UHGV virus genome: UHGV-0081034
Direction: 5' to 3' (one strand)
DNA from: a virus
Length of the DNA stretch: 34,043 bases
Positions 5,341 through 34,043 of the stretch are shown piece after piece (the first letter of the stretch is position 1; each line of letters starts with the position of its first letter). The notes under the pieces are model-generated. The model worked only from the letters and a program-made list of their open reading frames with translations. It was not told the origin of the DNA and made no database searches. Made by a program: the position numbers and the translations under genes.

Positions 5341-5354
5341 GAAAGGGTGATATT

Positions 5355-5846: not shown

Positions 5847-5870
5847 GGAGGGCATAGCTCTCCCTTTTTA
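5846..5870 (+). terminator. Rho-independent terminator after the tail tube gene (GGGAGGGC…GCTCTCCC + TTTTT)
   Basis: Stem-loop at 5846-5864 followed by a T5 run. Classic attenuation point between the major tail gene and the chaperone/TMP genes. Confidence 0.6.
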
Positions 5871-5883
5871 GGAGGTAAAGATC

Positions 5884-6327
5884 ATGGCATATCAGGCAAA
5901 ACGAAACAAAAGATTTGAGGAAGACTTCGAACTGGTCGATGAAAACGGCGTTGTGCAGCACACATTAAAAGTATCCTTGGATGCAGATGATATGGTCGCA
6001 AAGATCAATCGGAAATACACGGCACTGGTCAAAGCGCTTTCGGATGTGCAGGAAATCAAAAGAAAAGAAGCCAGCAACGAACAGTTAAGTGATGCGGTCG
6101 AGATGCTTGGAAGAGCAGAAATTGACATGTTTGAAGCTGTATTTGGAGCAGAGGGGACAGAGGTCATTCAGCAGTTCTACAAAGACCATTACATTGAGAT
6201 GGCAAAGGAAGTCATTCCATTTATCACCGGAGTTGTTATTCCAAGGCTTACTGAAATTAAGGCGGAAAATAAGAAAGTATTGGTGAGTCAGTATAATCGC
6301 GCGAAAAAGAGACGGAGATTCTGGTAA
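5884..6327 (+). CDS. Tail assembly chaperone (G-like)
   Basis: 147 aa, acidic. Sits immediately upstream of the tape measure region. Ends in a TAATG overlap with the next ORF, which lies in the -1 frame. Confidence 0.6.
   Translation: MAYQAKRNKRFEEDFELVDENGVVQHTLKVSLDADDMVAKINRKYTALVKALSDVQEIKRKEASNEQLSDAVEMLGRAEIDMFEAVFGAEGTEVIQQFYKDHYIEMAKEVIPFITGVVIPRLTEIKAENKKVLVSQYNRAKKRRRFW
6303..6309 (+). promoter_or_regulatory. Candidate -1 programmed frameshift heptamer G_AAA_AAG producing a G-T chaperone fusion
   Basis: Zero-frame codons GCG AAA AAG. The -1 frame is open from 6297 through ATG 6327 into the 200-aa downstream ORF. Confidence 0.35.
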
Positions 6328-7118: not shown

Positions 7119-9530
7119 GTGGCATATGTGAGCAAGAGTAGTGGCGGAGAGGTTACTTATGAATTAACTGCTGATGACAGTAATCTGGAGTCAGATCTGA
7201 ATGAAGCCGGAAAGAAAATTGAAAAATCAGCCAAGAAGACAGCAAAGAAATCAGAAGAGGCAGAGAAGGAAAGTGCTGAGGTAAAGAAATCTGTTAAAGC
7301 GGACGTTACCAAAAAGAATGAAGAGGAAAATGATAAACAGGAGCAGGATGATGATGATTCGTATTCAAACCGCGAGGAGTCCGCCAAATCGCATGGATCT
7401 AAGCTGACGACAATAGCTTCAGGAACGGCTAAAGCTATCGGAGCAGGTATGCTTGCTGCAGGAACTGCGATTGTTGGAGTTGGTGTTGCCGCTGTAAAGA
7501 GCGCGAATGATATCGACCAGGCAATGAATCAGTACATTGCCAGCACCGGAAAAAGTACCGAGGAAACAGAACGGTACAAGAAGATCATGGAGGATATCTA
7601 TACAAATAATTACGGTGATTCCTTCGAGGATATCGGCGAGGCAATGGCATCAATCACTCAGAATCTTGGTGATCTTGATGACGCATCACTGCAGACCGTA
7701 ACCGAATCAGCGTTCGCATTGCGCGATACGTTCGGATACGAGATACCGGAATCCACAAGAGCTGCTAAAGCTATGATGGATAACTTCGGTACGTCCGGCG
7801 AAGAAGCGATGAACCTCATTGCAGCAGGTGCACAGAATGGATTGGACTATTCCGGAGAGCTTCTTGACAGTATCTCAGAGTATTCAGTACAGTTTGCGAA
7901 AGTCGGACTGGATGCCGATGACATGTTTAAGATTTTCCAGAAGGGTGCAGAATCCGGAGCTTTCAATCTGGACAAGGTCGGTGATGCAGTAAAAGAGTTC
8001 TCTATCCGGGCAATCGATGGATCAGATACCACTGTAGATGGCTTTAAACGCATCGGCTTGAATGCTGACGAGATGGCGGCAAAATTCTCTGCCGGCGGCG
8101 ACACTGCGAAAGAAGCATTCCAGGAAACGATTGCAGCACTTGCCGCTATGGAGGATCCGTTGGAGCAGAACACAGCCGGTGTCGATCTGTTTGGCACCAT
8201 GTGGGAAGACCTCGGTCCTGAAGCTGTAACAGCGTTGGCAAGCATCGAGGACGGAGCTTACGACACTGCAGGCGCAATGCAGCAGATCAAAGACATCAAA
8301 TACGATGATATCGGCTCTGTATTTGAAGGTCTCAAAAGAAGCTTAGAGGTATTGATTGTTCCATTAGGAGAGCAGTTGATACCGCTTCTGGCGGAGATTA
8401 TTGATGATACGCTTCCTATGTTGGAATCGGCGTTGCCGTCAATAGTGGATGCCGTGTCGGATGTGATAGAGGCATTACAGCCAGCTATCGAAGAGATCCT
8501 TCCAGTGTTAATGGATTCTCTGGCAGAAATCGGAGAGCCATTGATGGATCTGGCTAACGAGATTTTTCCAGTACTGTTGGATGCAGTCAATGAAATACTT
8601 CCGTTAGCAGCGCAACTGGTTGGAGAAGTTCTTCCGGTCATAACAGATCTGCTGAATATGCTACTTCCACCGTTGGTGGAGATCATAAGCGCATTATTAC
8701 CGCCGCTTATTGAATTGGTGTCTGCATTGATGCCGATATTCGAAGCAGTAATAAGCGTGTTACAACCAATCTTAGATCTGTTTATTAGCTTACTCACGCC
8801 GATTGTCGATCTGATTGCTCAGGGAATCACACCGCTGGTAAATGCGATTGTTCCACTGATCCAGATTATTGCATCAAACCTTATTCCACTGCTTCGCATT
8901 ATGGGAAGCGTGTTCTCTGGTGTGCTTTCATCGGTATTGTCTACTGTTACGAGTATTATTGGAAATATAAGCAATATCTTTCGTAATTTGATTGATTTTA
9001 TCAAGAATATATTTACAGGAAACTGGCGTGCTGCATGGCAGAATGTGAAGAATATCTTTTCAAATGCAATATCCGGACTGGCAACAATCTTTAAGGCACC
9101 AATGAATGCCATTGTCGATGGGTGGAATAGTTTGGCAAGCAGTATTGGAAGCGTATCTGTTCCGGATTGGGTGCCGATTGCCGGAGGAAAAAGCTTTAGC
9201 TTGCCAAAGATGAGCCGATTGAAAGTCGGACTGGATTATGTACCAAGAGATATGTTCCCGGCATTTCTGGATGAAGGCGAATGGGTGTTGACTAAGGAAG
9301 AAGCGAATCTGCTTCGTTCTTTTGGAGGCCTTGAGGGCATGATTGGAAAAATTGACAGGAGTACACGAGACAGTGTGAATGTTACGGTGCAAGGTGGAAA
9401 AGGAATGGAGATAGATTATGACAAACTTGGCAAGGCCACAGCTGATGCGTTGATTAGTGCTGGTGTTGGATTTAAGTGTGATGAGCGTGTGTTTGCAAAA
9501 TTAATAAAGGATCTGATTGATTATGTATGA
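7119..9530 (+). CDS. Tail tape measure protein
   Basis: 803 aa. K/E-rich N-terminus, hydrophobic central segments, and a long C-terminal region of ~11-aa periodic LP.L/IP.L repeats. GTG start. Typical position. Confidence 0.9.
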   Translation: MAYVSKSSGGEVTYELTADDSNLESDLNEAGKKIEKSAKKTAKKSEEAEKESAEVKKSVKADVTKKNEEENDKQEQDDDDSYSNREESAKSHGSKLTTIASGTAKAIGAGMLAAGTAIVGVGVAAVKSANDIDQAMNQYIASTGKSTEETERYKKIMEDIYTNNYGDSFEDIGEAMASITQNLGDLDDASLQTVTESAFALRDTFGYEIPESTRAAKAMMDNFGTSGEEAMNLIAAGAQNGLDYSGELLDSISEYSVQFAKVGLDADDMFKIFQKGAESGAFNLDKVGDAVKEFSIRAIDGSDTTVDGFKRIGLNADEMAAKFSAGGDTAKEAFQETIAALAAMEDPLEQNTAGVDLFGTMWEDLGPEAVTALASIEDGAYDTAGAMQQIKDIKYDDIGSVFEGLKRSLEVLIVPLGEQLIPLLAEIIDDTLPMLESALPSIVDAVSDVIEALQPAIEEILPVLMDSLAEIGEPLMDLANEIFPVLLDAVNEILPLAAQLVGEVLPVITDLLNMLLPPLVEIISALLPPLIELVSALMPIFEAVISVLQPILDLFISLLTPIVDLIAQGITPLVNAIVPLIQIIASNLIPLLRIMGSVFSGVLSSVLSTVTSIIGNISNIFRNLIDFIKNIFTGNWRAAWQNVKNIFSNAISGLATIFKAPMNAIVDGWNSLASSIGSVSVPDWVPIAGGKSFSLPKMSRLKVGLDYVPRDMFPAFLDEGEWVLTKEEANLLRSFGGLEGMIGKIDRSTRDSVNVTVQGGKGMEIDYDKLGKATADALISAGVGFKCDERVFAKLIKDLIDYV

Positions 9531-16504: not shown

Positions 16505-17617
16505 TCACGCTTTCTTCGGTTCGTGTTGCATTTCGTGTTGCATGATTTGAGTGAAATGCTCGTTTATCTTGTCAGTAAACTTCTTTTCCTCGGACTCAAT
16601 GGTGCCACGGTACACCTTTTTGAGCACTTTGTCAGACTTCCACCCACCACGTTTCATGATGTACTGATCCGGAATATTAAGCGCATGCATGATGGATGCA
16701 GTGTAGTGACGGAGATCATGATATCGAAACTCTGGAACACCGGCAGAGCGTAGCACCTTCTTGAAGTTCTTGGACAAGTCTTCCGGGTGCATTTTAACAA
16801 GTGGACCACTTTCAATATCATCAAATTTTCTGATTACAAATTCTGGCATAATCACATGTCTGCAACTACTCTGTGTCTTAGGCCCTTTGGTCACGATTCC
16901 TTTTCTACCACGTACACGTGTCTCTCTGATCCGAATAGAGTTTCCGGTGATATCTTCCTTTGTCAGACCGAACACTTCTCCTCTTCGAAGACTTCCAAAC
17001 GCTGCAAGGAGTACGGCCTTTTCCATCTCAGTTCCTTCAATGTACTTGATCAGTTTCTCGATGTCCTCATCAGATGGAACATATCCGTCAAAATCTTTTG
17101 GAGCTGGTAACGTGACTCTAAATATTGTTCCAGGAGAATACATCCCTATGACAGCCGTAAATAGTCCATAAGCGTTCTTTACTGTCTTAGGTGATAACTT
17201 TATTGAGATTGCATTTACCCACGCTTGTACGTCCTCTTGAGACAGCTTACGTAGGCTTATGTTCTCGATTTGCTTTATCTGATTCCTTACGATTGTTTCA
17301 TATCCACGCAATGTGGTTTCAGACAGCACATTCTCTTTTAATTTAATGTAATTAGTGAACGCTTCTTTTACAGTCCAGTTCTCAGGACGTTTCTTCCGGT
17401 CCTTTTCTGCGAGAAACTGTGCAGCCTGTGCTTCAGCTGACTGTTTTCCTCGTTTACCTGGAAGATCACTGGTGAATGATTCATAGATTCTTTTCTGCTT
17501 CTGCTTTTTTGTTTTCGGATCAATGACTGGTTTTCCATCCTTATCCACCATATTTTCATAGTGTGAGAATACCAGACATCTCCATGATCCGGAAGGTAAC
17601 TTCTTAGCTGTTGCCAT
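16505..17617 (-). CDS. int: Tyrosine site-specific integrase
   Basis: 370 aa. C-terminal catalytic region with the HDLRHYTAS / R…H.LRH…Y arrangement. N-terminal arm-binding-type domain. Adjacent to attP. Confidence 0.9.
   Translation of the reverse strand: MATAKKLPSGSWRCLVFSHYENMVDKDGKPVIDPKTKKQKQKRIYESFTSDLPGKRGKQSAEAQAAQFLAEKDRKKRPENWTVKEAFTNYIKLKENVLSETTLRGYETIVRNQIKQIENISLRKLSQEDVQAWVNAISIKLSPKTVKNAYGLFTAVIGMYSPGTIFRVTLPAPKDFDGYVPSDEDIEKLIKYIEGTEMEKAVLLAAFGSLRRGEVFGLTKEDITGNSIRIRETRVRGRKGIVTKGPKTQSSCRHVIMPEFVIRKFDDIESGPLVKMHPEDLSKNFKKVLRSAGVPEFRYHDLRHYTASIMHALNIPDQYIMKRGGWKSDKVLKKVYRGTIESEEKKFTDKINEHFTQIMQHEMQHEPKKA
16520..16543. repeat. Tandem TTCGTGTTGCAT x2 inside the integrase 3' end (encoding MQHEMQHE); candidate P' arm-type sites
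   Basis: Exact copies of the 12-mer seen at 16292-16325. Symmetric placement around the tRNA-like core. Confidence 0.4.
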
Positions 17618-17815: not shown

Positions 17816-18361
17816 TTATTTCAGCAAATCTGCAATACAGATCTTAAGGTCATCATAGATTCCAACAGGAATCTCATCATCAAAAGAATATTGATTGAAG
17901 TCTTCTATATCACCAAAGAGGTAAGTCTGAACAGTCTCTTTCATTGGATTCACGATCCAGTATTCACGAACACCGGCTGTGCGGTATTTGAATAGCTTGG
18001 TAAGGTAATCCATACGCTGACTGCTTGGTGATACGATTTCGATAATGAAATCTGGGGCACCATTGCATCCATGGTCATTAATCCGGTTTGGATCACAGAT
18101 TACGGAGACATCTGGTTCTACATAGTTATGATCATCCTGATTCAGAAAAACAGCAAATGGAGCAGGCAGAACTTCGCAAGGACCTCCATGGGATTTAATA
18201 TAATCCCGGATTGTTGCGGAAAGTTCCATTACAAGTTTCTGATGAAGATAACTCGGTGGAGCCATGTCATAGATCTGACCGTCAATCAGTTCTGCACGCT
18301 GCCCATCAGGAAGAGCGTAGATGTCTTTGATTGTGTAGTTGTTTGATTTTGGTAATGGCAT
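17816..18361 (-). CDS. Uma2-family (DUF820) PD-(D/E)xK putative endonuclease
   Basis: ATG 18361 follows aagga. ~181 aa with the PDFIIEIVSPSS … GVREYWIVNP hallmark of Uma2 proteins. The track start at 18397 lacks an RBS. Confidence 0.65.
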   Translation of the reverse strand: MPLPKSNNYTIKDIYALPDGQRAELIDGQIYDMAPPSYLHQKLVMELSATIRDYIKSHGGPCEVLPAPFAVFLNQDDHNYVEPDVSVICDPNRINDHGCNGAPDFIIEIVSPSSQRMDYLTKLFKYRTAGVREYWIVNPMKETVQTYLFGDIEDFNQYSFDDEIPVGIYDDLKICIADLLK

Positions 18362-18409
18362 GTGTTCACATCCTTTTGTAATATTATAAAGAAACAATTC
18401 ATAAATAGC

Positions 18410-19282
18410 CTATCCAATTAAGTTGTTTTGTGATGCAGTATCAATTTCCATTGGCGGAATTTCAAGATTGGAAAAAAGCAATTCTTTTCCTTGGACATGT
18501 GTATTAACAGAATAATCCAAATAAATATTTTGGCGCTTGCTTTTTTGATAGAGCTTTCGAATTTCTGGATGATCATCGTAGCTCACCAACCAAGGATATG
18601 ATTTATTTTTAATAAATTTGGCTAATCTTATATGCATACTTTTATCATAAGAATAGCGATACAAAGTAGGCCCCTTTTCATAATAAGGAGGATCGACATA
18701 TACAAATGTGTTATAATTTCTTTTATATTTTGTTTTTTCGTTTAAAAAATCAAGAGCATCCATATTGTATATTTCAATTCTGTCGGAGAAACAAGATAAC
18801 TCACGGATACTTTTAATAATTTTTTCCTTGTTAAAGCGACAATCAATTTTGTATTGTGATTCCTGTTTCATTCCTCCGAGTGGATTCGCATTTAATATAC
18901 CAGAAAAACTTGTTCTATTTAGGTACAATCCGGCAAATCCTATTTCTAGCGGAGATTTATTTGTAAGGTATGAAGAATTTCGGTATTGCGAATAATGCAT
19001 CCAATTATCTAACGTAATGTCAACGTTTTCAATTAGAGTTATTAAATTGTTGGTATCATTCATTACTGATAACCAGAAATAATAAATTAAAGGATCTAAT
19101 TCGTTAATTATTGCTTTTGAAATCGTTTTTGATTCAAGTAATGCTAAGGAAACTGCTGCGCTACCAGCATAAGGCTCATATAAGGTGCAATTAGTAAGAT
19201 GTTCTGTTTCAAGTAGTTTTTTTATGTAGGGAACTAATTTTGATTTTGCACCTGGATAACGCAAAGGATTTTTAATTGGCAT
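18410..19282 (-). CDS. dam: DNA adenine (N6) methyltransferase, Dam / D12 class
   Basis: 290 aa. N-terminal LRYPGAKSKL and YEPYAGSAAV (AdoMet) motifs and a DPPY catalytic motif (YVDPPYY). Very AT-rich gene. Confidence 0.8.
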   Translation of the reverse strand: MPIKNPLRYPGAKSKLVPYIKKLLETEHLTNCTLYEPYAGSAAVSLALLESKTISKAIINELDPLIYYFWLSVMNDTNNLITLIENVDITLDNWMHYSQYRNSSYLTNKSPLEIGFAGLYLNRTSFSGILNANPLGGMKQESQYKIDCRFNKEKIIKSIRELSCFSDRIEIYNMDALDFLNEKTKYKRNYNTFVYVDPPYYEKGPTLYRYSYDKSMHIRLAKFIKNKSYPWLVSYDDHPEIRKLYQKSKRQNIYLDYSVNTHVQGKELLFSNLEIPPMEIDTASQNNLIG

Positions 19283-19334
19283 AAAATCACCTCCTAAATT
19301 TTATTATACATAAAAATAATATATTTGGCCAGAA

Positions 19335-20906
19335 TTATTCGAGTATATCCAAAATAGGAATATCATTTTGTAACGCTAATTGATTGAATATTTCAACATA
19401 ATTGTTCAAAAACAGTTGATATTCGGAAGGGCGAGTGAGTTTCCAATAATTATATAACTTGGAATTACCTCTTCCCCAGTATTTTTCTTGTTCTTTGAAC
19501 CATTTTTTGTATTGCTGAGGGTCGGCGTTACGATCAATTAGTGTAGGATAATTTGCAAAACATTTTTTCTTATCATATTCGCCTAACTCAGTATCCCAAA
19601 AAGAATCTGTTTCGTCCAAAGAATAAAGAAACCTGTAAAACATTTCTTCAGGACAAGTAGTGCCAGGAAGAAACATTACATATTTTCCACGATATTGTTT
19701 AATCTTTTTGCAAATTGATTGCTTATTTTTATCACCATCAAGAATCAAGATACTTTCACAAACGGGTTTTAGTTTTACTCGTAATAATTCAAGGTATGAT
19801 TCAGCACCAATAGAACATGGGCTAAAAACAATATTTTTTCTAAAACCACCATTAAGGAGTGACTTAACAAATGATTGCGCTACATCATCTTCGGTAAAAA
19901 TTGTAATTTTAGGTATGACATCTGGAGTACCTTTAACTGAACCAGATAATTCTAAAATTACATCGTCAATAGAAGTAGTAGGCTTATTTTTTACCAAATT
20001 TCCTTCTTTCTTTAAATATACAAGTTTAGTTTCTTTTGGATTGTATTTATCAAAAAAAGTAGCTTTTAACACAGAAGGAGAGTGTGTTGTAAAAATAAAT
20101 TGTATTTTATAATCACCGGCATATTTATAAAGACGCTTAATGAGCCTCATTTGTGACAAAGGATGAAAAGTTGATTCAATTTCATCAATCAGCAGAATTC
20201 CACCTTTATAATCATTTGGATATTTTTGCATTAGGCGTCTAAAGGATAATACAGAAATTAGAATTTTCCCTAAGTTGTCTTGACCAGCAGAAATAGATAG
20301 CGCATCTTGATCATTTGGGTGAATAGATGCAGTATATTTTATTCCAGAATGTATAGTATCAATTTCTATATTATCTGATAGATCTGACATAATGTCTTTA
20401 TACTCCAATGTTAAAAATTTCTTTTCTTCAGGAGTGAGCTGATTTAAGTATTCAAAAGAGTCTTCTTCGCCAATAGGAGAAACTCTTTTTAAGCTTAAAT
20501 AATAAACAGGAACTTGTGGGTATCCGGTTCCAGCACCTTTACCTTCAGTAGACCAAAAGCGAGGAATTGGATCTGATTTATCACGATATATACTATGTGC
20601 TTCAAAATAATCATTTTTGTATATATTAGGATATAAATTTAAACGCCATTTATGCGTTCCAGGAATATCTTTATCTGAAAGTTTAAATTTTTCTGCAAAT
20701 TGTGAACGATATTTGTAATTATCAATGGAACTTTCGCCATACATGGGATTATTTTTATTTATAGAAAAGGTTTGTCCTAAAATACCTAGAGTGGTAGTTT
20801 TCATAGTTCCATTATGACCAACTATTGCGGTTAGTTTTGTACCTAAATCAAAATCTACATTTTCAAGAGCTCTAAACTTATCTATGTGTACGCTTTTAAT
20901 TATCAT
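19335..20906 (-). CDS. OLD-family ATPase-nuclease (N-terminal ABC-type ATPase plus C-terminal Toprim-like domain); class 1 OLD or fused PARIS-like defence protein
   Basis: 523 aa. Walker A-like GHNGTMKTT, Walker B LLIDEIESTFHP, H-loop TTHSP. C-terminal IFTEDD … ILILDGDKN resembles Toprim E / DxD. Very AT-rich, with its own promoter region at 20907-21025. Confidence 0.6.
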   Translation of the reverse strand: MIIKSVHIDKFRALENVDFDLGTKLTAIVGHNGTMKTTTLGILGQTFSINKNNPMYGESSIDNYKYRSQFAEKFKLSDKDIPGTHKWRLNLYPNIYKNDYFEAHSIYRDKSDPIPRFWSTEGKGAGTGYPQVPVYYLSLKRVSPIGEEDSFEYLNQLTPEEKKFLTLEYKDIMSDLSDNIEIDTIHSGIKYTASIHPNDQDALSISAGQDNLGKILISVLSFRRLMQKYPNDYKGGILLIDEIESTFHPLSQMRLIKRLYKYAGDYKIQFIFTTHSPSVLKATFFDKYNPKETKLVYLKKEGNLVKNKPTTSIDDVILELSGSVKGTPDVIPKITIFTEDDVAQSFVKSLLNGGFRKNIVFSPCSIGAESYLELLRVKLKPVCESILILDGDKNKQSICKKIKQYRGKYVMFLPGTTCPEEMFYRFLYSLDETDSFWDTELGEYDKKKCFANYPTLIDRNADPQQYKKWFKEQEKYWGRGNSKLYNYWKLTRPSEYQLFLNNYVEIFNQLALQNDIPILDILE

Positions 20907-21025: not shown

Positions 21026-21472
21026 TTATTTATCAATATTTTTAAATTTCATTATCTTGTTATCATATCCAGCAATTCTTGCAATTTGTGATTTATTTAT
21101 ACCAGGATTCTCATAGATCAGTTCATCTGGTATCAGCAGTTCTGCCGCAAAAGTATTTGCTTCAATCTCCATCTTGGAAGTCAGCAGAAGAGTCTTATTT
21201 CTAATGAAATAACAATTTTCCTTCCGGTGCATAATTGAATGAGCCAGTTCGTGAGCCATGACAAGGGTTCTTTCATGTTCCTCTAAATCTTCATTAAGGA
21301 AGATGCACTTATGATTCTTGAGAAACATATAGCATCCAGCGTTTGATCCAAGCGGACCGGTCTGGACTTCTACATTCAGATATTCTGCAAGCCTAAAAGG
21401 GTTTCTGGTTTCATATTTTTTGACGTAATAAGCAACTAAACGCTTAACATCATGTGCTTTCAATTGCAACAC
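21026..21472 (-). CDS. immA: ImmA/IrrE-family metallopeptidase (anti-repressor protease)
   Basis: 148 aa with an HEXXH motif (AHELAHSIMH). Immediately downstream of, and stop-start adjacent to, an XRE repressor, as in ImmR/ImmA pairs. Confidence 0.8.
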   Translation of the reverse strand: MLQLKAHDVKRLVAYYVKKYETRNPFRLAEYLNVEVQTGPLGSNAGCYMFLKNHKCIFLNEDLEEHERTLVMAHELAHSIMHRKENCYFIRNKTLLLTSKMEIEANTFAAELLIPDELIYENPGINKSQIARIAGYDNKIMKFKNIDK

Positions 21473-21892
21473 CTACTTTTTATTCTTGTTAGGATTGTAT
21501 TTTTCCTTATTGATAGGTTTCAACCGGCGCATCATTAATTCAATTTGTCCCAGAAGCAGTTCTGTGTCTTCTTCCGGAATAGGTTCACCATCGTAGGAGA
21601 GCGGACCATCAGCACCATTCATTAATTTACCACGGAGATTCTCTAAATCCTTTGCAATGTCTCTTTCATCTTTTGGAGTGATTGCATAAGGATCCTCTTT
21701 CTTTTCTTCACCAGTGAAGTATTCGGTTGGAACTCCGAAGTAATCAGCTATTTTCTGCAATTTTTCCATCTTAGGAGTATATTTCCCTTGTTTCCAACTT
21801 GTGAGAGTAGCAGTTGTTACTCCTGTTTCTTTTGATACTCGATAAGCGGTTACATTATTTTTCTTTAGTAATTCTTCAAATTTTTCATACAT
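21473..21892 (-). CDS. immR: XRE-family HTH repressor (ImmR / CI-like)
   Basis: 139 aa. N-terminal HTH_XRE (…VSKETGVTTATLTSWKQGKYTPKMEKLQKIADYFGV…). Divergent from the Cro-like gene. Confidence 0.8.
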   Translation of the reverse strand: MYEKFEELLKKNNVTAYRVSKETGVTTATLTSWKQGKYTPKMEKLQKIADYFGVPTEYFTGEEKKEDPYAITPKDERDIAKDLENLRGKLMNGADGPLSYDGEPIPEEDTELLLGQIELMMRRLKPINKEKYNPNKNKK

Positions 21893-26517: not shown

Positions 26518-27363
26518 GTGGCAGCGTTGCCAAGACCAAGAAAGAATGGGTTAGACTACTTTCCACTTGATGTTGATTTCCTTGACGATCCTAAAATAAA
26601 GATACTAAAAGCCAGATATGGACGAGATGGTATCGTATTTTATATCTACCTGTTATGTGAGATATATAAGCAGGGATATTACCTGCAGGTAGATGAAGAT
26701 TTTGAATATATTATATCTGATGATCTAAAAATTGATCAGAACAAGGCGAAGCAGGTCTTGAACTTCTTGCTGTCACGGTCACTGTTTGATAACACACTTT
26801 TTCAGTCGGACAAGGTCTTGACCTCTGCCGGAATACAGAAAAGATTTCAACTTGCAGTTAGAGAACGAGCAAGGAAAAATCCGATAGAAGTTGGAAGGTA
26901 CTGGCTTTTAAAAAAAGAAGAAACAGAACCTTTTATTAAGTGCACCCATTTTAGTGATTTATCCGAGATAAAAGAGAGTTATTCCCGGAAAAACGATTGT
27001 AATTCCACGGAAAAATCCCTAAAGAAAAGTAAAGTAAAGAATATAGATAATATATTAGGATTCAGCCCGGAACTTGAACAGGCATTTCAGATGTATATTC
27101 TTGTCCGTTCTAATAATTATGGAGACATGATACCGGAACAGATTCAGGCACTTCGAGAGGATTTGATCCAATTGAGCGATTCAGAAGTTGAACGCATTGC
27201 TATTGTTAAGAAGGCAACAGCAGGAGGATGGAAATCATTTTATAAGACACCAGGCAAGGAGAAGCAGAGCAGAACTAAGAAGGCAGCAGTTAAGGACAAT
27301 AACAATTTTAAGAGAAGACAGTATGATATGGATGATCTTGAGAATCGACTGTTGGGAAGGTAG
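26518..27363 (+). CDS. Phage replisome organizer / replication initiation protein (Lin1244-type N-terminal domain)
   Basis: 281 aa. N-terminal DYFPLDVDFLDDPKIKILKARYGRDGIVFYIYLLCEIYKQGYY matches the DUF4373-type N-terminal domain. GTG start. Confidence 0.55.
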   Translation: MAALPRPRKNGLDYFPLDVDFLDDPKIKILKARYGRDGIVFYIYLLCEIYKQGYYLQVDEDFEYIISDDLKIDQNKAKQVLNFLLSRSLFDNTLFQSDKVLTSAGIQKRFQLAVRERARKNPIEVGRYWLLKKEETEPFIKCTHFSDLSEIKESYSRKNDCNSTEKSLKKSKVKNIDNILGFSPELEQAFQMYILVRSNNYGDMIPEQIQALREDLIQLSDSEVERIAIVKKATAGGWKSFYKTPGKEKQSRTKKAAVKDNNNFKRRQYDMDDLENRLLGR

Positions 27364-27369
27364 AGAAGA

Positions 27370-27687
27370 ATGGGTGAAGGTAAAATAAGAAAATGTATTA
27401 TCTGCGGACGGCTCATCACGGCATCAAGAAGATATGCATACTGCAGTGATGAGTGTGCAGATTATGCTAGCAAAGAGCGTGCTAGAACAAAAATGCGTGA
27501 AATACAAAAGGAACATAGAAAATTTATTACAGAGACCAGGCAAAAGAAAAATATGAAGAAGCCTGGAAGAAAGTCAAAGCGGTACAGAAATGAGCTCATA
27601 AGAATAGCAGCGGAAGCAAGAGAGCATGGTATGAGCTATGGACAGTATGTTGGAATTTATGAATACCAGAAGGGGATGAAAATTTAA
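27370..27687 (+). CDS. Zinc-ribbon small protein, basic C-terminus
   Basis: 105 aa. CIICG…YCSDEC. Lys/Arg-rich. Confidence 0.45.
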   Translation: MGEGKIRKCIICGRLITASRRYAYCSDECADYASKERARTKMREIQKEHRKFITETRQKKNMKKPGRKSKRYRNELIRIAAEAREHGMSYGQYVGIYEYQKGMKI

Positions 27688-27688
27688 A

Positions 27689-28090
27689 ATGAGTAGAATG
27701 ATGGACGCAGATAAATTTCTTTCCTGGCTGAGTGAGGTCGAGGGTGAGATCAGGAAAGAGAAGATGAAAGACTGTCAGCCGGATCGGTATGATGACGGGC
27801 TAATGGCGGCAACAGGAACCGTCAGGGAGTATGTTGAGAAGATGTGCAAGATCGACGAGGCAGAGGGAAAGGCGGATCAGAGTTGGATTCCATGCAGTGA
27901 ACGATTTCCAGACGGCGATAGATATATTCTTGTATCGTTTGAAAACTTCACAATACCAGATATTGCACGATATGAAGAAGATGGCGAGGGCGGAGCATTT
28001 TATCCGAGAGATGATGAAAGACCTTATTCAAGCTACGGACTATTTGTCAATGCTTGGATGCCATTACCAGAGTCGTACAGAGAGGAGTAA
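27689..28090 (+). CDS. DUF551-like phage protein
   Basis: 133 aa. W-x-P-C-S-E-R-F-P-D … AWMPLPE motif pattern reminiscent of DUF551. Confidence 0.45.
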   Translation: MSRMMDADKFLSWLSEVEGEIRKEKMKDCQPDRYDDGLMAATGTVREYVEKMCKIDEAEGKADQSWIPCSERFPDGDRYILVSFENFTIPDIARYEEDGEGGAFYPRDDERPYSSYGLFVNAWMPLPESYREE

Positions 28091-28092
28091 GC

Positions 28093-28419
28093 ATGTCAGA
28101 GAGATTAACAACATACCACTGCGGAAAAGCAGTGATTAAGGACAAGAATAAGCTGTCAGAAGCTATGGAGAAGTTAGCTGAGTTTGAAGAAAAAGAAAAA
28201 TGTGGAGAATGGCTTGACGCTATCGAACTTGCGAAAATTGCTATTGCACTGCAAGGCCTGAAGCGGATTCCAGTAAAGCCGATTATCTTAGATGTACTGA
28301 ACGGAGATATCGACTATGTATGCCCTTTATGCGATAAAGAGGTAATGTCGGATGCGGAAAGCAGAAACAACTATTGTGGCGAATGCGGTTGTAAATTTGA
28401 TTGGAGTGGTGAACAGTGA
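28093..28419 (+). CDS. Zinc-ribbon small protein
   Basis: ATG 28093 follows agaggag. C-terminal CPLCDK … CGECGC. Confidence 0.45.
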   Translation: MSERLTTYHCGKAVIKDKNKLSEAMEKLAEFEEKEKCGEWLDAIELAKIAIALQGLKRIPVKPIILDVLNGDIDYVCPLCDKEVMSDAESRNNYCGECGCKFDWSGEQ

Positions 28420-28724
28420 AAAGAAGTACAGACACACGCTGGAGTCCTGCAGAGATCCAGCAGAATCAAAAAGAACATTATGCTGCTATGGCAGAGCATC
28501 CGCCTGACCGGAAGGCAAGCGAGAAGTTTCATCGGCCGGCATACCAAGCAGGCAATCTGATCAAAGCACAGGGGCAGCAGTTGTGGCATGGAGATGTGGC
28601 GGAGTATTTGGCGAGAAAGTACAAGATAGGAGATGATGCCAATGGAGAAGAGACTGGAAGAGAACAATGTGAAGAACGAGAACAACCGGAAAAAAGAGTA
28701 TCTGAGAGGATACAGAGCCAATAG
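28416..28724 (+). CDS. Hypothetical protein (GTG start; overlaps the next gene by ~90 nt)
   Basis: 102-aa ORF from the track. Coding status uncertain because of the large overlap. Confidence 0.3.
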   Translation: MKRSTDTRWSPAEIQQNQKEHYAAMAEHPPDRKASEKFHRPAYQAGNLIKAQGQQLWHGDVAEYLARKYKIGDDANGEETGREQCEEREQPEKRVSERIQSQ

Positions 28725-29091
28725 AAGACGAATCAGCAGAATTGACGATGAGGTAAGAGAACTTAGGGAACTTGCAGAATCTACGAAAGCAACAGACTAT
28801 TCGGGGATGCCACATGGTAGTGGAAATCAGAAAGATCTGTCAGATGAATTGGCAAGAATTGATTCACTGGAAAAGAGATTACAGAAAGAAAAAAGCAAAT
28901 GCATCGAATCATATATATCCATTGAAAATCAGATTAAGACAGTGAAGAATGAAGATGAGAACGATGTACTGTTTTACAGATACATTAAGGGATTGCGTTT
29001 TTGGGAAATCGCTGAAAAGATGGATTGTACAGAACAGTGGGTTCATAAGTTGCATGGGAGAGCATTAGGACGTTTAAAAATACCAAAATAA
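28633..29091 (+). CDS. Sigma-70 region-4-like HTH protein; candidate late-gene transcriptional activator (ArpU/RinA-like)
   Basis: 152 aa. C-terminal LFYRYIKGLRFWEIAEKMDCTEQWVHKLHGRALGRL resembles sigma r4. Last regulatory gene before the packaging module. Confidence 0.55.
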   Translation: MMPMEKRLEENNVKNENNRKKEYLRGYRANRRRISRIDDEVRELRELAESTKATDYSGMPHGSGNQKDLSDELARIDSLEKRLQKEKSKCIESYISIENQIKTVKNEDENDVLFYRYIKGLRFWEIAEKMDCTEQWVHKLHGRALGRLKIPK

Positions 29092-29290
29092 TTTATTATA
29101 GTTTATTGAAGTTTAGTATAAATGTGTGAGAGAATTACAATGAGCCGAGGACGGAAAACCGAAGGCTCGTCCTCTCTTTGTATAAAACCTAAGAAGCACC
29201 TGCACAGGGATGTGTGGGTGTTTTTCTGTTGTATAATGTCGAAGTTTGGGATATTATGGAAATAGGGTTTATATAGACGGAGGAATGATT

Positions 29291-30226
29291 ATGGCAAAGA
29301 AAAAAGAAAATGTTGTGAGAAGAAGTTTATATTATTATGACTTATCTTGGAAGTATTTCGATGAAAAGTCTGGAGAATATGTTAGTGTAAAAAGAAAAGA
29401 AGAAAAGTTTGAGAATTTTCTAAAAAAATTCTGTTTCAAAGAAAAGAAAGTAAACGTTAAATACATATCCACGACAGAGAATGAAGATAATTTATTTATT
29501 ATTACAGATAAAATAGAAAATGATAAAATATATTTTAGGATAGTTTTATGTAAAACTAATGCACTTCCTTTAATAGAGCAGGACGGTGAACTAGAAGAAT
29601 TAGAAAAATATATTAATAAAAAGCAAAATATTGCAGAAATAACACATTGTGTATTTTTTAAAGACACTAATATCGTAGGAAGTGAATTTAACTTTTCAGG
29701 AGCAAGAATATCAGCATTGAACTGGTATATTCCAAAAATTCTGAACATATGTGGAGATAATCAAAAATTATATCAAATTAAATTTATGCCCAAAATTGAT
29801 AATGATTCCTATAAGAAATTGGCTAAGAATGAAACAATAACATTATTCGATATGACATTTAAGCCAGATTCAGAGGCATATAAAAACGTTTTAGCACATA
29901 ATAGTTTGTTTAGTGGAGCTGTGAAAAATGTCCCGGATGCAGAAATAATAGAAATAACATTAAAGAGAAGAAAAAATAAGACAAACAGTTATACGGGGAT
30001 GAATGACGTTTTATCATCAGATGATTTGAAAGAATTGTTGACTAAGTATAGAGATGATATTGGGAAATTATATATAAGTCAGGGTTCGTATTGTGATGCA
30101 ATTGATTTATTATCAGATAAACTAGTTAGCAAGGTAGATATAGTTCGGACTAAAAAAAGAACAATAGATTCAAAAGATGTATATAAAAAGATAGAAGAAT
30201 TCTATAAAGAAGAGGTAAAGCCTTAA
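29291..30226 (+). CDS. Hypothetical 311-aa soluble protein in a very AT-rich moron (candidate defence/abortive-infection component)
   Basis: ATG 29291 follows ggagg. Lys/Asn/Ile-rich with 16 ATA codons. No recognisable catalytic motif by eye. Sharp drop in GC relative to flanking phage genes. Confidence 0.5.
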   Translation: MAKKKENVVRRSLYYYDLSWKYFDEKSGEYVSVKRKEEKFENFLKKFCFKEKKVNVKYISTTENEDNLFIITDKIENDKIYFRIVLCKTNALPLIEQDGELEELEKYINKKQNIAEITHCVFFKDTNIVGSEFNFSGARISALNWYIPKILNICGDNQKLYQIKFMPKIDNDSYKKLAKNETITLFDMTFKPDSEAYKNVLAHNSLFSGAVKNVPDAEIIEITLKRRKNKTNSYTGMNDVLSSDDLKELLTKYRDDIGKLYISQGSYCDAIDLLSDKLVSKVDIVRTKKRTIDSKDVYKKIEEFYKEEVKP

Positions 30227-30247
30227 TATTGGGAGAAAATCAATAGA

Positions 30248-30712
30248 ATGGAAAAAACATGGGCGAACAAAATTGATAAAGTAATCATTATCTTTTTACC
30301 GATTTTGATTGGAATCGCAGGAAATATTATATGTAATAAGTGCGGTAAACAACTATTAATAGTTGACAAGGAAAAAGGAATCGATTTATTGAAGACGATT
30401 TTAGATATATGGGGAATATTGCTCGGTTTTATTTTTACGGCAACATCAATCTTATTAACTATTGGAGAAAATCAGTATGTGAAATTGCTAAAAGATACAA
30501 ATCATTTTCCTAATATATTATTTTCATATGTAATGGCAGGAACGTATTTGTTAATGGCAATTACTTTCGGAATAGTATTGCTATTTGTGGACATATGGGG
30601 AGAATGTATTTTTAATATTTTTTTATGCTTAAACATAATAATTATTGTATCTATGGCAATGTGTGTAAAGTTTCTTTTTAATATAATTTTAAACATGGAT
30701 AGAAAGAGATGA
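30248..30712 (+). CDS. Small integral membrane protein (4 predicted TM helices) paired with the preceding gene
   Basis: 154 aa. Hydrophobic stretches at ~10-30, 50-72, 93-115 and 122-145. Same AT-rich composition. Followed by a strong terminator. Confidence 0.55.
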   Translation: MEKTWANKIDKVIIIFLPILIGIAGNIICNKCGKQLLIVDKEKGIDLLKTILDIWGILLGFIFTATSILLTIGENQYVKLLKDTNHFPNILFSYVMAGTYLLMAITFGIVLLFVDIWGECIFNIFLCLNIIIIVSMAMCVKFLFNIILNMDRKR

Positions 30713-30723
30713 TTAATTACAAG

Positions 30724-30746
30724 GCACCCTCCGGGGTGCTTTTCTT
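30724..30746 (+). terminator. Rho-independent terminator (GCACCC-tccg-GGGTGC + TTTTCTT)
   Basis: Perfect 6-bp GC stem with tetraloop and T-run, 12 nt after the membrane-protein stop. Confidence 0.6.
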
Positions 30747-30760
30747 ATCCCCAAAAACCC

Positions 30761-30832
30761 GGACCATTAGTTCAGTGGTAGAACATTCGCCTCATAAGCG
30801 AAATGTCGTAGGTTCGATTCCTGCATGGTCCA
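30761..30832 (+). tRNA. tRNA with anticodon CAT (elongator-type; Met, or more likely Ile2/lysidine)
   Basis: 72-nt cloverleaf: acceptor GGACCAT/ATGGTCC, D-arm GTTC-AGTGGTA-GAAC, anticodon arm TTCGC-CTCATAA-GCGAA, variable loop ATGTC, T-arm GTAGG-TTCGATT-CCTGC, discriminator A. 1:72 is G:C and there is no GGG/CCC anticodon stem, so it is not an initiator. C4:G69 and C5:G68 match E. coli-type tRNA-Ile2 identity pairs. Confidence 0.8.
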
Positions 30833-30861
30833 TGAAATAAACCAGAATTGAAGGTGGTGAA

Positions 30862-31371
30862 GTGGCGAATGAATACAACCTAAAACCGGTACGAAGCAAG
30901 AGGGAAGCAAGAGAGCGTGGAAGAAACGGTGGTATAAAGTCCGGTGAAGCAAGACGCAGGAAGGCAGCCCTTAGAGATACAATGAATAAGCTCCTGACTA
31001 TGCAGGTGGATGTCGAAGGACTGTCTGATGTGATACGTGCTGACAGTGGAGAGAATACCACTTATGAGGATGTGATCACAATGGCAATGATCCAGGAAGC
31101 TATGCTGGGGAACGTGAAAGCGTATCAGGCCATCATGCAAGTGGTCGGGCAGACGGATAAGTCAGAAGAGGATCTGGAAGAGCAGAAGATTCGGACAGAC
31201 AGAGCCAAGAGAGCTAGAGATCAGGAACTTGGTGATACAGATGGGAAGAATGAGAACATCAATGATTTTTTGAAAGCGATAAAGCCGAGTCAGGAAGATC
31301 TCAACAATTTGTTCACTGGTGAGCAGGAGGAAGAATATGCCGAGGAAACAGAAGAAACCGACGAGATTTAA
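30862..31371 (+). CDS. terS: Terminase small subunit
   Basis: 169 aa. Basic N-terminus and acidic C-terminus. GTG start after aaggtgg. Overlaps the terL start. Confidence 0.6.
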   Translation: MANEYNLKPVRSKREARERGRNGGIKSGEARRRKAALRDTMNKLLTMQVDVEGLSDVIRADSGENTTYEDVITMAMIQEAMLGNVKAYQAIMQVVGQTDKSEEDLEEQKIRTDRAKRARDQELGDTDGKNENINDFLKAIKPSQEDLNNLFTGEQEEEYAEETEETDEI

Positions 31372-32650
31372 GTTTGCTCCTTTTTCCGAGCAACAGCAGA
31401 GGCTTATGCATTGGTGGAGACCACCACTTGCAAGTTCTTCTTGTGATTTCGTGATTGCTGATGGAGCTATCCGATCGGGAAAGACGATAGCGTGTATCAT
31501 AGGTTTTCTCACATGGTCACAAGAGATGCATTCTGGGAAATCGTTTGTCCTTGCCGGTAAGACAATGGGAGCACTTAAGAAGAATGTGATTCGACCAATG
31601 CTTCAGATTCTTGAAGCGTGGGGATGGCCGTATGAATATATCAGATCGGGGACAGATGCAAGGATTGAGATCGGGAGTAATACATACTACCTGTACGGAG
31701 CGAATACCGAAGCGGCACAGGATGCCCTCCAGGGATTGACTGCTGCTGGCGCATATCTGGACGAGGCGGCGCTATTCCCTAAAAGCTTCGTGGATCAGGC
31801 GATTGGACGCTGCTCTGTGGAGGGTGCAAAGATCTGGATGAACTGTAACCCAGCAGGACCACACCATTATATCCGGGAAGAGTACATTCTTCAGGCAAAA
31901 CAAAAGAAAGTCTACCATCTGCATTTCATGATGACGGATAATCTTACGTTATCTTCGAAGGTGTTGGAACGATACCGCAGAGCATGGCCACATGGAAGTG
32001 TGTTCTACAAGCGTTTCATTCTTGGAAAATGGGTAGCTGCTGATGGTCTTATCTACCAGCAGTTCGCGGACCATGTAGAAGATTATCTTATTGATCAGAA
32101 GTGGTTAGATGAAAATCAAATAGCATATGCAGTGATTGGAGTCGATTTCGGTGGTACGAAGTCGGCTCATTCTTTTACCCTTACAGGATTTACAAAAGGG
32201 TATAAGCGGGTGGTTGTGTTGGATGAATATTACCGAAAGGAGCGTATCAATCCAAAGCAATTACAGGAAGACTTTATTGACTTTGTAAGAAGAGCACAGA
32301 GTCGATACAAAGTATATGAAGCATACTGTGACAGTGCTGAACAGGCTTTGATTGCAGGCTTTGAGAGTGCGGTGATTCATGAACATATAGTGATAGAGAT
32401 CAAGAATGCAATTAAAGGATCTATCAATGATCGGATCGCATTCTACAACAGTCTGATTGCCCAGCACAGGTGGAAAGTTATGCGGCATTGTACGCATATC
32501 ATTGCAGCATTTGAAGAAGCGGTATATGACGAGAAAAAGAAGAGCATGGATGTCCGGCTGGATGATGGCGAAATGAACGTGGATAGTTTGGACAGTACAG
32601 AATACAGCACAGAAAACGTACAGGAAGACATTTTGTACATAGCAGCGTAG
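31337..32650 (+). CDS. terL: Terminase large subunit (PBSX/XtmB-type, headful packaging)
   Basis: ATG 31337 follows aggagg. Walker A-like DGAIRSGKT and ATPase coupling motif LDEAA. C-terminal RNaseH-like nuclease region. Confidence 0.85.
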   Translation: MPRKQKKPTRFKFAPFSEQQQRLMHWWRPPLASSSCDFVIADGAIRSGKTIACIIGFLTWSQEMHSGKSFVLAGKTMGALKKNVIRPMLQILEAWGWPYEYIRSGTDARIEIGSNTYYLYGANTEAAQDALQGLTAAGAYLDEAALFPKSFVDQAIGRCSVEGAKIWMNCNPAGPHHYIREEYILQAKQKKVYHLHFMMTDNLTLSSKVLERYRRAWPHGSVFYKRFILGKWVAADGLIYQQFADHVEDYLIDQKWLDENQIAYAVIGVDFGGTKSAHSFTLTGFTKGYKRVVVLDEYYRKERINPKQLQEDFIDFVRRAQSRYKVYEAYCDSAEQALIAGFESAVIHEHIVIEIKNAIKGSINDRIAFYNSLIAQHRWKVMRHCTHIIAAFEEAVYDEKKKSMDVRLDDGEMNVDSLDSTEYSTENVQEDILYIAA

Positions 32651-32662
32651 GGGGTGAGAAAG

Positions 32663-34043
32663 ATGAGTACGACAGTAAACAGAGCAGTGAAATCATATCT
32701 TTTAAAGCGCGAATTCAATGTTGTATCAGACGATACATACAACCATATAGATGAGTGGCTTGACTGGTATCAGAATGATGTGGAGAAATTCCATAAGTAC
32801 AGTGTATACAACGGCGTAGTCATGACAAAACAGGATCGGTATAAGCTTGGCATGGCCAAGACGGTTAGTGAAGACTGGGCAAATCTTCTCCTGAATGAAA
32901 AGGTGGCGATTCACGCAGGAGGATATGATGCAAGGCTGACGGAAATCCTTCGGGCAAATAACTTCCAAACACGTGCAAATCAGCTACTAGAATTGTCCTT
33001 TGCGCTTGGAACAGGGGCATTTGTAGAATATAAAAATGCAGAGGGGGATGTGGTTATTGATTACATTCGGGCAGATATGATCTATCCTCTGGCATGGGAT
33101 AACGGAGACGTGACAGAATGCGCTTTCGGAACTCCTAAAGTTGTGGATGGGAAAAAGGTGATTTACATTCAGATTCACCGGTTTGGACGCAGCGAGGAGG
33201 AGAAAGGTGATGAGTACTATATCGAAAATAGATATATAGATCAGGAATCAGGGAAAGAGATTGATGCACCGGAAGATATTGTGGAAATTGTCGGCACGGA
33301 AAGCGTAGAGCCACTTTTTCAGCTGGTTACTCCCAACATTTGCAATAATATTGACTTGGACAGTCCACTGGGCATATCAATTTATGCAAATGCACTTGAC
33401 GAAGTGAAAGGATGTGATTTGATCTATGACAGCTATATGAATGAGTATGTTCTAGGTCGCAAGAGGATCATGGTTCCACTGAGTCAGGCGAAACGACAGA
33501 TGGAAGCTGACGGGGTTACAAATCCGGTATTTGATCCGAACGATACAGTCTACTACATTCTGCCTGAAGATCGGAATGGGGAGAACAAGCTGACTGAGGT
33601 GGATATGACGATCCGGGCATCGGATCATGAATTAGGAATGCAGAGAGCGTTAGATCTGCTCAGCTTCAAGTGTGGAATGGGTGCAGGACGCTATAAATTC
33701 GAGCAGGGCGGTGTAAAGACAGCTACAGAGGTTATATCTGACAAGTCTGATCTGTATCAGAATCGGCAGAAGCACTGCATTATTATATCTGCTGCAATCA
33801 TTAACCTGATCCGGGCTGTATCTTTCCTTGATCAGGGCGGAGTAGTAGACGCGACAGTGGATTTTGATGACTCCATTATTGAGGACAGTAATACAATTAT
33901 TGATAAGAATATCAAGTTGGTTGGTGCTGGACTCAGATCAAAGGTTAAGGCAATCATGGAGATCAATAAGTGCTCCGAGGAGGAAGCACAGGAAGAGTTG
34001 GAACGAATCAAAGAAGATGGACAAATTACCGGTCAGGACATTG
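32663..34043 (+). CDS. Portal protein (N-terminal 460 codons; ORF continues in frame into positions 1-113)
   Basis: ATG 32663 follows gggggtgag. SPP1 gp6-like portal by size and position after terL. Open to the end of the window. Confidence 0.85.
   Translation, partial: MSTTVNRAVKSYLLKREFNVVSDDTYNHIDEWLDWYQNDVEKFHKYSVYNGVVMTKQDRYKLGMAKTVSEDWANLLLNEKVAIHAGGYDARLTEILRANNFQTRANQLLELSFALGTGAFVEYKNAEGDVVIDYIRADMIYPLAWDNGDVTECAFGTPKVVDGKKVIYIQIHRFGRSEEEKGDEYYIENRYIDQESGKEIDAPEDIVEIVGTESVEPLFQLVTPNICNNIDLDSPLGISIYANALDEVKGCDLIYDSYMNEYVLGRKRIMVPLSQAKRQMEADGVTNPVFDPNDTVYYILPEDRNGENKLTEVDMTIRASDHELGMQRALDLLSFKCGMGAGRYKFEQGGVKTATEVISDKSDLYQNRQKHCIIISAAIINLIRAVSFLDQGGVVDATVDFDDSIIEDSNTIIDKNIKLVGAGLRSKVKAIMEINKCSEEEAQEELERIKEDGQITGQDI

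Follow-up and report, generated by a model that had tools for sequence, protein, structure and literature searches.

The rexA and rexB genes of bacteriophage lambda make up the oldest known abortive-infection system. They lie downstream of cI in the PRM operon and encode proteins of 279 and 144 amino acids (aa), the second of which, RexB, is an inner-membrane protein of approximately 16 kDa with four transmembrane (TM) helices. Rex-like pairs are also described for actinophages (Sbash gp30/gp31, CarolAnn gp44/gp43, Toast gp42 and Butters gp30/gp31), in which RexA-like DNA-binding dimers and RexB-like membrane proteins exclude heterologous phages, and for the Pseudomonas putida prophage P1, in which the pair RexABpp (PP_5643/PP_5644; PMC12894663) is found downstream of a CI-like repressor. 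The subject of the present comparison is a two-gene cassette in the UHGV virus genome UHGV-0081034, the whole stretch of which (34,043 nucleotides, nt) was analysed and is here termed the window. The window represents a temperate phage of the Lachnospiraceae type (gut Firmicutes), and its AT-rich insert on the plus strand encodes the proteins of open reading frames (ORFs) A and B, hereafter ORF-A and ORF-B. This pair is very probably homologous to RexAB.

Like lambda rexA-rexB, the cassette is carried by a temperate phage and consists of two adjacent, co-oriented genes, the first for a soluble and the second for a membrane protein. The cassette proteins measure 311 and 154 aa, ORF-B is a 17.5 kDa protein with four TM helices, and all four proteins, those of lambda and those of the cassette, have a similar, basic isoelectric point. 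The original prediction for this locus, made from the sequence alone, had taken the order of soluble and then TM protein, together with the lack of recognizable motifs, to indicate an uncatalogued architecture. This claim fails because a soluble protein followed by a four-TM protein is precisely the arrangement of lambda rexA-rexB, down to the sizes of the products. The cassette is a highly divergent member of the RexAB class rather than a categorically new system, and it is uncatalogued only in the practical sense that the RexA and RexB models of Pfam and PADLOC miss it.

ORF-A and the RexA superfamily

ORF-A has the composition that had been described for it, with 46 Lys and 22 Asn among its 311 residues, and it is without any hydrophobic segment (maximum 19-residue hydropathy 0.76). 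Direct scans of ORF-A and ORF-B against Pfam, NCBIfam, PADLOC and PHROGs returned nothing significant, the best matches being PHROG families of unknown function with expectation (E) values of 4e-4 to 0.3. A search of 5.8 billion proteins found 69 close homologues of ORF-A, all of approximately 300-320 aa and none of them named. The most distant of these (34-45% identity) match the Pfam family DUF6731 (PF20505) over nearly the full length of its model. More specifically, homologues P0065-P0067 score 28.6-43.2 bits against a gathering threshold of 27 bits, and P0038 lies just under that cut-off at 24.5 bits. ORF-A itself has no match to the DUF6731 model at E <= 1 and is linked to these same homologues at E values of 1e-39 to 1e-69. 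In a profile search of 1.84 billion representative proteins, the family grew to 782 clusters (defined at 50% identity) at E <= 1e-3, of which 398 were found at E <= 1e-10. The cluster names of the distant members were uninformative, and a full-text literature search found DUF6731 mentioned nowhere.

The predicted structure of ORF-A points to RexA. When an AlphaFold (AF2) model based on a 31-sequence alignment (predicted local distance difference test, pLDDT, 83.9; predicted template modelling score, pTM, 0.70) was compared with the PDB by Foldseek, lambda RexA was the first match (8TWQ; E 1.1e-5, probability 1.00) and Escherichia coli RdgC the second, and the list of matches is the fold group given in the RexA structure paper (PMC11077077). 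The model comprises an N-terminal beta-sheet with helices (residues 8-153), a middle domain (161-263) and a C-terminal strand and helix (279-309). This order of elements matches the split topology of RexA, in which a globular domain is interrupted by a four-strand/four-helix dimerisation domain (PMC11077077). The similarity of ORF-A to E. coli RdgC (2OWL) and to the kinetochore proteins CENP-N/CHL4/IML3 is much weaker than that to RexA, and those proteins work in recombination or at the kinetochore and are without a membrane partner. The identification of ORF-A as a stand-alone RdgC was rejected on the grounds that its structural match is weaker than that of RexA and that its TM partner is obligatory. 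A fold search of BFVD yielded uncharacterised viral proteins and weak RdgC matches only, and an hmmsearch of PDB sequences with the ORF-A family profile returned noise (E 0.46). The structural and profile comparisons that had been proposed for the 311-aa protein did not relate it to any structural or housekeeping family; the top fold match was to RexA.

Profile comparison likewise connects the two families. An hhalign comparison of 183 ORF-A family members with 47 RexA-family proteins, including distant ones of 309-320 aa, gave a probability of 97.5% and an E value of 8.3e-12 across 231 columns, at approximately 13% identity; controls in which either alignment was reversed gave E values of 0.26 and 0.38. 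The motifs paired in this alignment are the most conserved ones of the ORF-A family: I-x-G-x-E-x-N-F-x-G-x-R...L..Y-L is aligned with I-I-G-F-A-R-T-I-Y-G-P...L..F-L of RexA, I-E-I-x-L-K-R-R-K with L-E-I-V-I-K-P-K, and I-D-L-L-x-D-K-L-V-S with G-D-I-L-T-x-H-Y-L-S. The RexA hidden Markov model (HMM) reached up to 34.8 bits on distant members of the ORF-A family. In ORF-A itself, the residues R11, E96, H119/C120, E132/N134/R139 and D276/K277 are invariant. Because the broad profiles and the RexA HMM match while the curated models do not, ORF-A appears to be a remote RexA-superfamily protein that falls outside the curated RexA family. Thus, as judged from sequence profiles and from the modelled fold, ORF-A is a soluble RexA-like protein belonging to a distant branch of the DUF6731/RexA superfamily.

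ORF-B and the RexB family

The four TM helices that had been proposed for the second protein are found both in its hydropathy profile and in its predicted structure. Stretches of TM length occur at residues 6-33, 44-74 and 90-150, the last counted as two, and the AF2 model (pLDDT 77, pTM 0.70) places helices at 5-32, 41-72, 87-114 and 119-153, with an additional short helix (76-83) in the second loop. ORF-B has 25 close homologues, and the genes for distant ORF-A homologues, too, are immediately followed by genes for ORF-B homologues. Residues common to the homologues are W55, L59-G60-F61, A65, S67-I68-L69 and H86.

When a profile of 38 ORF-B family sequences was aligned with a RexB profile made up of ten enterobacterial sequences and three partners of distant RexA proteins (loci L052, L054 and L056), hhalign reported a probability of 94.2% and an E value of 1.1e-7, and the match was collinear over 139 of approximately 150 positions. 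Against the narrow enterobacterial RexB profile alone the probability fell to 29.5%, and a six-sequence ORF-B alignment compared with lambda RexB was not significant. Since hydrophobic composition may inflate such scores, the RexB profile match is supportive and not conclusive. Together with the predicted structure it supports the placement of ORF-B as a RexB-like four-helix membrane protein.

That the two reading frames are chance ORFs, or the decaying remnant of something functionless, has a negligible probability. In its favour are counted the scarcity of stop-free frames arising by chance in AT-rich DNA and the failure of known families to match directly; against this explanation, the 69 and 25 close homologues, the 782 ORF-A clusters and the invariant motifs, the confident fold predictions, the good Shine-Dalgarno (SD) sequences of both genes and the maintenance of the pair from Firmicutes to Archaea all count, and the conservation already refutes it.

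Linkage of the pair and its genomic contexts

The two genes were found together in all 31 loci examined, in the order rexA then rexB; co-occurrence elsewhere was a check that the original prediction had proposed. In all 22 loci found through ORF-A (window included), the next gene on that strand encodes a B homologue, and in all nine found through ORF-B the gene immediately before it encodes an A homologue. The distant RexA loci L052 and L054 have the same gene order as lambda and the window.

The sites at which the pair resides are varied. The arrangement of the window, in which the pair lies between a sigma-like gene and the terminase, recurs at L001-L006, L017, L018, L020 and L062-L065. Elsewhere the pair has the large terminase on one side and the portal on the other (L010, L016), or it is located after a 2,694-aa NlpC/P60 tail protein (L007), before a GP3-type packaging gene (L009) or near an Amidase_2 endolysin (L011, which carries a DUF6731-type member with the same four-TM partner). 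No phage genes were seen at three of the loci: in L015 (Acetatifactor) the pair directly follows the R subunit of a Type I restriction system (HsdR), in L021, a metagenome-assembled genome of the Thermoplasmatota, it adjoins the Hachiman gene HamA (1291-2789), and in the planctomycete L022 it lies between IS66/IS1 transposases and an HTH-M78 (helix-turn-helix and peptidase) regulator (4833-6289). In Geoglobus ahangari pleomorphic virus 1 (L012; BK065157.1, 2785-4249), an archaeal pleolipovirus of the non-lytic type, the pair corresponds to gp18/gp19 and stands next to a RelE/ParE toxin gene. This virus was the only match of ORF-A in a tblastn search of 50,697 phage records, which found none of the actinophage Rex-like pairs, and a tblastn search of plasmids found nothing. 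The Rex literature compared here makes no mention of Rex-type pairs in Archaea. In the 15 Firmicute and gut-metagenome loci measured, the guanine-plus-cytosine (GC) content of the pair is 6-20 points below that of its flanks. Varied sites, low GC content and defence-gene neighbours are traits typical of mobile, defence-type accessory cargo. Of what had been proposed for the cassette, the defence reading is supported, with an obligate pair in 31 of 31 loci and sites beside HsdR and HamA, while the uncatalogued architecture does not. The extension of the ORF-A/ORF-B family to Archaea and to defence-island sites outside prophages is a difference from lambda rexAB.

A separate observation concerns the lambda family itself. 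At L054/L055 (4001-5327), a distant true RexA (PF15969, 309 aa) and a 152-aa partner occupy what is apparently a non-prophage chromosomal site between a Tex-like protein and sulfate transporters, with a GC content 11 points below the flanks. Rex pairs of the lambda family are therefore not confined to prophages.

These contexts bear on whether the pair could instead serve the life cycle of its own phage, as a lysogeny-lysis modulator tuned by ORF-B or through a lysis-timing or holin-like function. Lambda RexA biases the CI-Cro switch, stabilising the lytic state without RexB, and the authors of that work question whether exclusion is the 'true' function; moreover, the L011 pair is near an endolysin and the pair in the window comes just after a late regulator. 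However, the repressor of the window is encoded approximately 7.4 kb away on the opposite strand, the position of the pair shifts from phage to phage (at the junction of terminase and portal, downstream of a tail protein or ahead of terS), and the pair also occurs outside recognisable prophages (beside HsdR, HamA and insertion sequences) and in an archaeal pleolipovirus. Its foreign composition and accessory cargo traits are also not those of a core developmental gene. Because of the distance from the repressor, the shifting position and the occurrence outside prophages, a role in the life cycle is less likely, and it is given the lowest standing among the functional alternatives weighed here. 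A holin or lysis function in particular was rejected because the position varies and because the pair is present in the pleolipovirus and in defence islands.

Occurrence outside prophages beside other defence genes would also suit a non-abortive mechanism of the Kiwa kind, in which ORF-B would sense the membrane perturbation of phage attachment or DNA injection and would activate or position ORF-A; ORF-A would then bind the incoming phage DNA and block replication or late transcription while the cell survives. Kiwa (KwaA, a four-TM protein, and KwaB, DUF4868) resembles the cassette in that one protein spans the membrane four times and the other binds DNA in the cytoplasm, the latter having in Kiwa a positively charged central channel (PMC13434031), and the fold of ORF-A is of the DNA-clamp type found in the RexA/RdgC group. 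Such a mechanism is nevertheless improbable: there is no PADLOC match at E <= 1, the gene order is opposite to that of kwaA-kwaB, and Kiwa is absent among the best structural matches listed for ORF-A. A literature search combining Kiwa, KwaB and RdgC found nothing. Membership of the cassette in Kiwa itself was rejected, with neither protein matched in PADLOC or Pfam (E <= 1) and the order reversed. The earlier comparisons with the cyclic-oligonucleotide-based system CBASS and with Pycsar found no support either. No model of these systems matched in PADLOC at E <= 1, and a CBASS or Pycsar system with a TM effector was rejected because there is no match to a cyclase or sensing domain, ORF-A has the RexA fold and ORF-B consists of TM helices only.

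Proposed mechanism and weight of the evidence

The pair is probably a Rex-type exclusion system that works by a lambda-like mechanism, a reading modelled on the actinophage systems, on lambda RexAB and on P. putida RexABpp. Transcription of the pair in the lysogen would start from a weak promoter of its own, and ORF-A would act as a cytoplasmic dimer with non-specific DNA binding that senses a superinfecting phage, the trigger being a phage protein or a DNA-protein intermediate of replication or recombination. Activated ORF-A would then engage ORF-B, probably through the conserved cytoplasmic loop 2 with its invariant His86, and ORF-B would oligomerise or open. The membrane would become depolarised or leaky, ATP would drop and growth would stop, such that the superinfecting phage would be aborted and the prophage-carrying population spared.

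A reversal of these roles, as in Butters gp30/gp31, would make ORF-A the toxic or antiviral effector (e.g. a DNA clamp) that ORF-B, as a membrane anchor or antidote, sequesters and silences until infection releases it. Such a reversal accounts for all of the homology and linkage evidence just as well, reversed roles are what has been described for Butters (PMC12894663), and proteins of the RexA fold bind DNA. On the other hand, the membrane protein is the effector in four of the five RexAB-like systems described, and the strict motifs of ORF-B (W55, LGF at 59-61, A65, SIL at 67-69 and H86) are also compatible with an active channel or effector. Role reversal is possible but unlikely, its probability being on a par with that of the Kiwa-like mechanism, and ORF-B as the membrane effector of a Rex-type system is preferred.

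Several observations weigh against the assignment to the Rex class or against the mechanism proposed for it. Neither ORF-A nor ORF-B has a direct match at E <= 1 to the curated models for RexA (PF15969 in Pfam, PDLC02339 in PADLOC) or RexB (PF15968, PDLC02340), while the positive controls on the RexA models scored 9e-110 (lambda RexA) and 4.9e-52 (Thiomicrospira RexA). The profile of the narrow 31-sequence clade around ORF-A is not significant against RexA (E 0.03-0.38), nor against lambda RexA taken as a single sequence or as four sequences, and the distant DUF6731-like members are therefore needed as a bridge for the sequence link. For both proteins, the matches became significant only when the profiles on both sides were broad. 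For ORF-B, the reversed RexB control still gave an E value of 0.011, and profile comparisons of TM proteins are prone to inflated scores. The global TM-score between ORF-A and RexA is low, at 0.32-0.35, since the two domains cannot be superposed together but only singly; the authors of the RexA structure describe the hinge between its two domains as mobile (PMC11077077), and a low global score for the model is consistent with a mobile interdomain hinge. The candidate promoter is weak, with three of six positions at -35, and expression in the lysogen is only inferred. Finally, debate continues even in the case of lambda over the trigger and over the model of cell death.

Location is the further point of difference. 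The cassette does not share the immunity-region location beside a CI-like repressor that is found in lambda, CarolAnn, Toast and P. putida; it lies between a late regulator and the terminase and has its own terminators, unlike lambda rexAB in the PRM operon. A repressor-adjacent location is, however, not universal among Rex-like systems, with Sbash, Butters and Rubeelu differing. The RexA-like proteins of the actinophages, which are encoded in or near immunity regions, are also larger (337-372 aa) than ORF-A, and the hosts differ, being enterobacteria for lambda and Gram-positive Lachnospiraceae-type bacteria for the cassette.

Organization of the locus and transcription signals

The cassette is a compositionally foreign, terminator-bracketed two-gene moron (Table 1). 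As had been noted from the letters alone, both genes are AT-rich and rich in ATA codons: their GC contents are 26.9% (ORF-A) and 27.3% (ORF-B), compared with 40.9% for the whole window and 42-49% for the adjacent genes, and ATA makes up 26 of their 56 Ile codons, compared with 66 of the 332 Ile codons counted in twelve other genes of the window. The mechanical ORF for ORF-A opens at the TTG at 29246 and would give 326 aa. From the stop of ORF-A to the start of ORF-B are 21 nt. The neighbours that had been named, a late activator upstream and packaging genes downstream, are borne out by the sigma-r4-like regulator and the terminase between which the pair is inserted. No flanking direct or inverted repeats indicative of a mobile cassette were found around it.

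Table 1. Coordinates of the cassette, its signals and other features of the window.
Feature	Position	Strand	Remarks
Uma2 putative restriction endonuclease	17816-18397	-	
D12-class N6-adenine methyltransferase	18410-19282	-	PADLOC PD-Lambda-5_B match, 2e-94
522-aa AAA_15/AAA_21 ATPase	19335-20906	-	PtuA/AriA/GajA/HEC-04-like matches
Repressor module	21026-21892	-	HTH_3 repressor-like, 21473-21892, then Peptidase_M78 / ImmA-IrrE, 21026-21472
Upstream ORF	28633-29091		Sigma70_r4 match, 1.3e-6; weak match to antiterminator Q
Upstream terminator-like hairpin	29192-29225	+	15-bp stem, U-run; terminator scan; free energy (dG) ~-20 kcal/mol, z -3.8
Candidate cassette promoter	29229-29257	+	TTGTAT, 29229-29234; 17-nt spacer; TATTAT, 29252-29257; overlaps TGTATAAT
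ORF-A	29291-30226	+	311 aa, soluble; ATG start; SD GGAGG, 29279-29283, 7 nt before ATG
ORF-B	30248-30712	+	154 aa, 17.5 kDa, four TM helices; SD GGGAG, 30231-30235
Intrinsic terminator closing the cassette	30721-30746	+	Hairpin 30721-30742; U-tract (UUUUCUU) to 30746
tRNA, anticodon CAT	30761-30832	+	Between cassette and packaging genes; ARAGORN tRNA-Met; Rfam 74 bits
Downstream ORF	31319-32650		Large terminase

The terminator that had been described at the 3' end is upheld, its GC-rich 9-bp stem and 4-nt loop having a dG of -15.3 kcal/mol and a z-score of -3.5, with none of 200 shuffled sequences as stable. Two features lay beyond the original prediction, namely the tRNA(CAT) gene and the upstream hairpin. 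The relative L002 has a hairpin at the same place (7895-7945; dG -20.5, z -4.9) with a different, compensated stem sequence. That the hairpin is kept while its stem has changed points to selection for keeping transcription of the late-regulator gene separate from that of the cassette, such that the hairpin may insulate the cassette from the sigma-like regulator gene.

The extended -10 element that had been placed at 29224-29232 fared less well. The sequence in question is TGTATAAT at 29230-29237, it is not the canonical TGnTATAAT, and it is not conserved, reading TGCGTAAT in close relatives, where the TATAAT of the original prediction is CGTAAT. A plausible, weak candidate is instead the overlapping TTG...TATTAT pair with its 17-nt spacer, of which the TTG (29229-29231) and the TATTAT are invariant in the relatives L001, L002 and L004, and which may act as a promoter; its score is under the threshold of a consensus scan.

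An Rfam scan found no cis-regulatory RNA at the locus and matched the tRNA alone. Similarly, a megablast search of 27000-33000 against phages matched the tRNA region alone, in Dorea phage DO134P1, whose tRNA-Met region is 88% identical to it over approximately 105 nt. The tRNA(CAT) is not of the initiator type because it is without the three G-C pairs in the anticodon stem. Given the ATA-rich adjoining cassette, it might be a tRNA-Ile2 that decodes AUA by means of a lysidine modification.

An HTH_3 gene followed by an M78 gene is the usual pair of repressor and anti-repressor protease in Firmicute prophages. The two genes of this module in the window also match the PADLOC models capP/capH and RmrA, which have these domains too.

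A second, probable defence moron in the window

Another AT-rich moron, with a GC content of 0.30-0.35, occupies 17816-20906 on the minus strand and has the integrase (16505-17617) on one side and the repressor module on the other. The family matches of its three genes (Table 1) make a defence system probable, either PD-Lambda-5-like or of the ATPase-methylase kind. If so, the phage stacks at least two defence cassettes, and it would be an example of prophages that stack defences.

Implications for the Rex class

What is new here is the connection of DUF6731 and its four-TM partner with Rex, and the breadth of the branch, which takes in gut Firmicute prophages, Planctomycetes, defence islands, Archaea and an archaeal virus. 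An orphan Pfam family and an unnamed four-TM family are thereby tied to the Rex class, and hundreds of gene pairs now listed as 'hypothetical' gain an annotation. The gain lies in extent and annotation and not in principle. It also exposes a gap in current tools, for the PADLOC RexA and RexB models catch lambda-like proteins and miss the DUF6731-like branch. The pair is common in Lachnospiraceae prophages of the human and animal gut and reaches into the Archaea.

On balance, we lean towards the view that the DUF6731-like proteins and their invariant four-TM partners make up a large, unrecognised branch of the Rex superfamily, and that Rex-type immunity is ancient and common to Bacteria and Archaea. 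The members of this branch offer compact and diverse Rex homologues with which to approach a question that is 70 years old, namely the means by which RexA detects an infection and RexB harms the membrane. If such an ancient branch exists, Rex-type exclusion would not be a curiosity of lambda and the actinophages, and the trigger and the effector chemistry could differ in the envelopes of monoderm bacteria and archaea.

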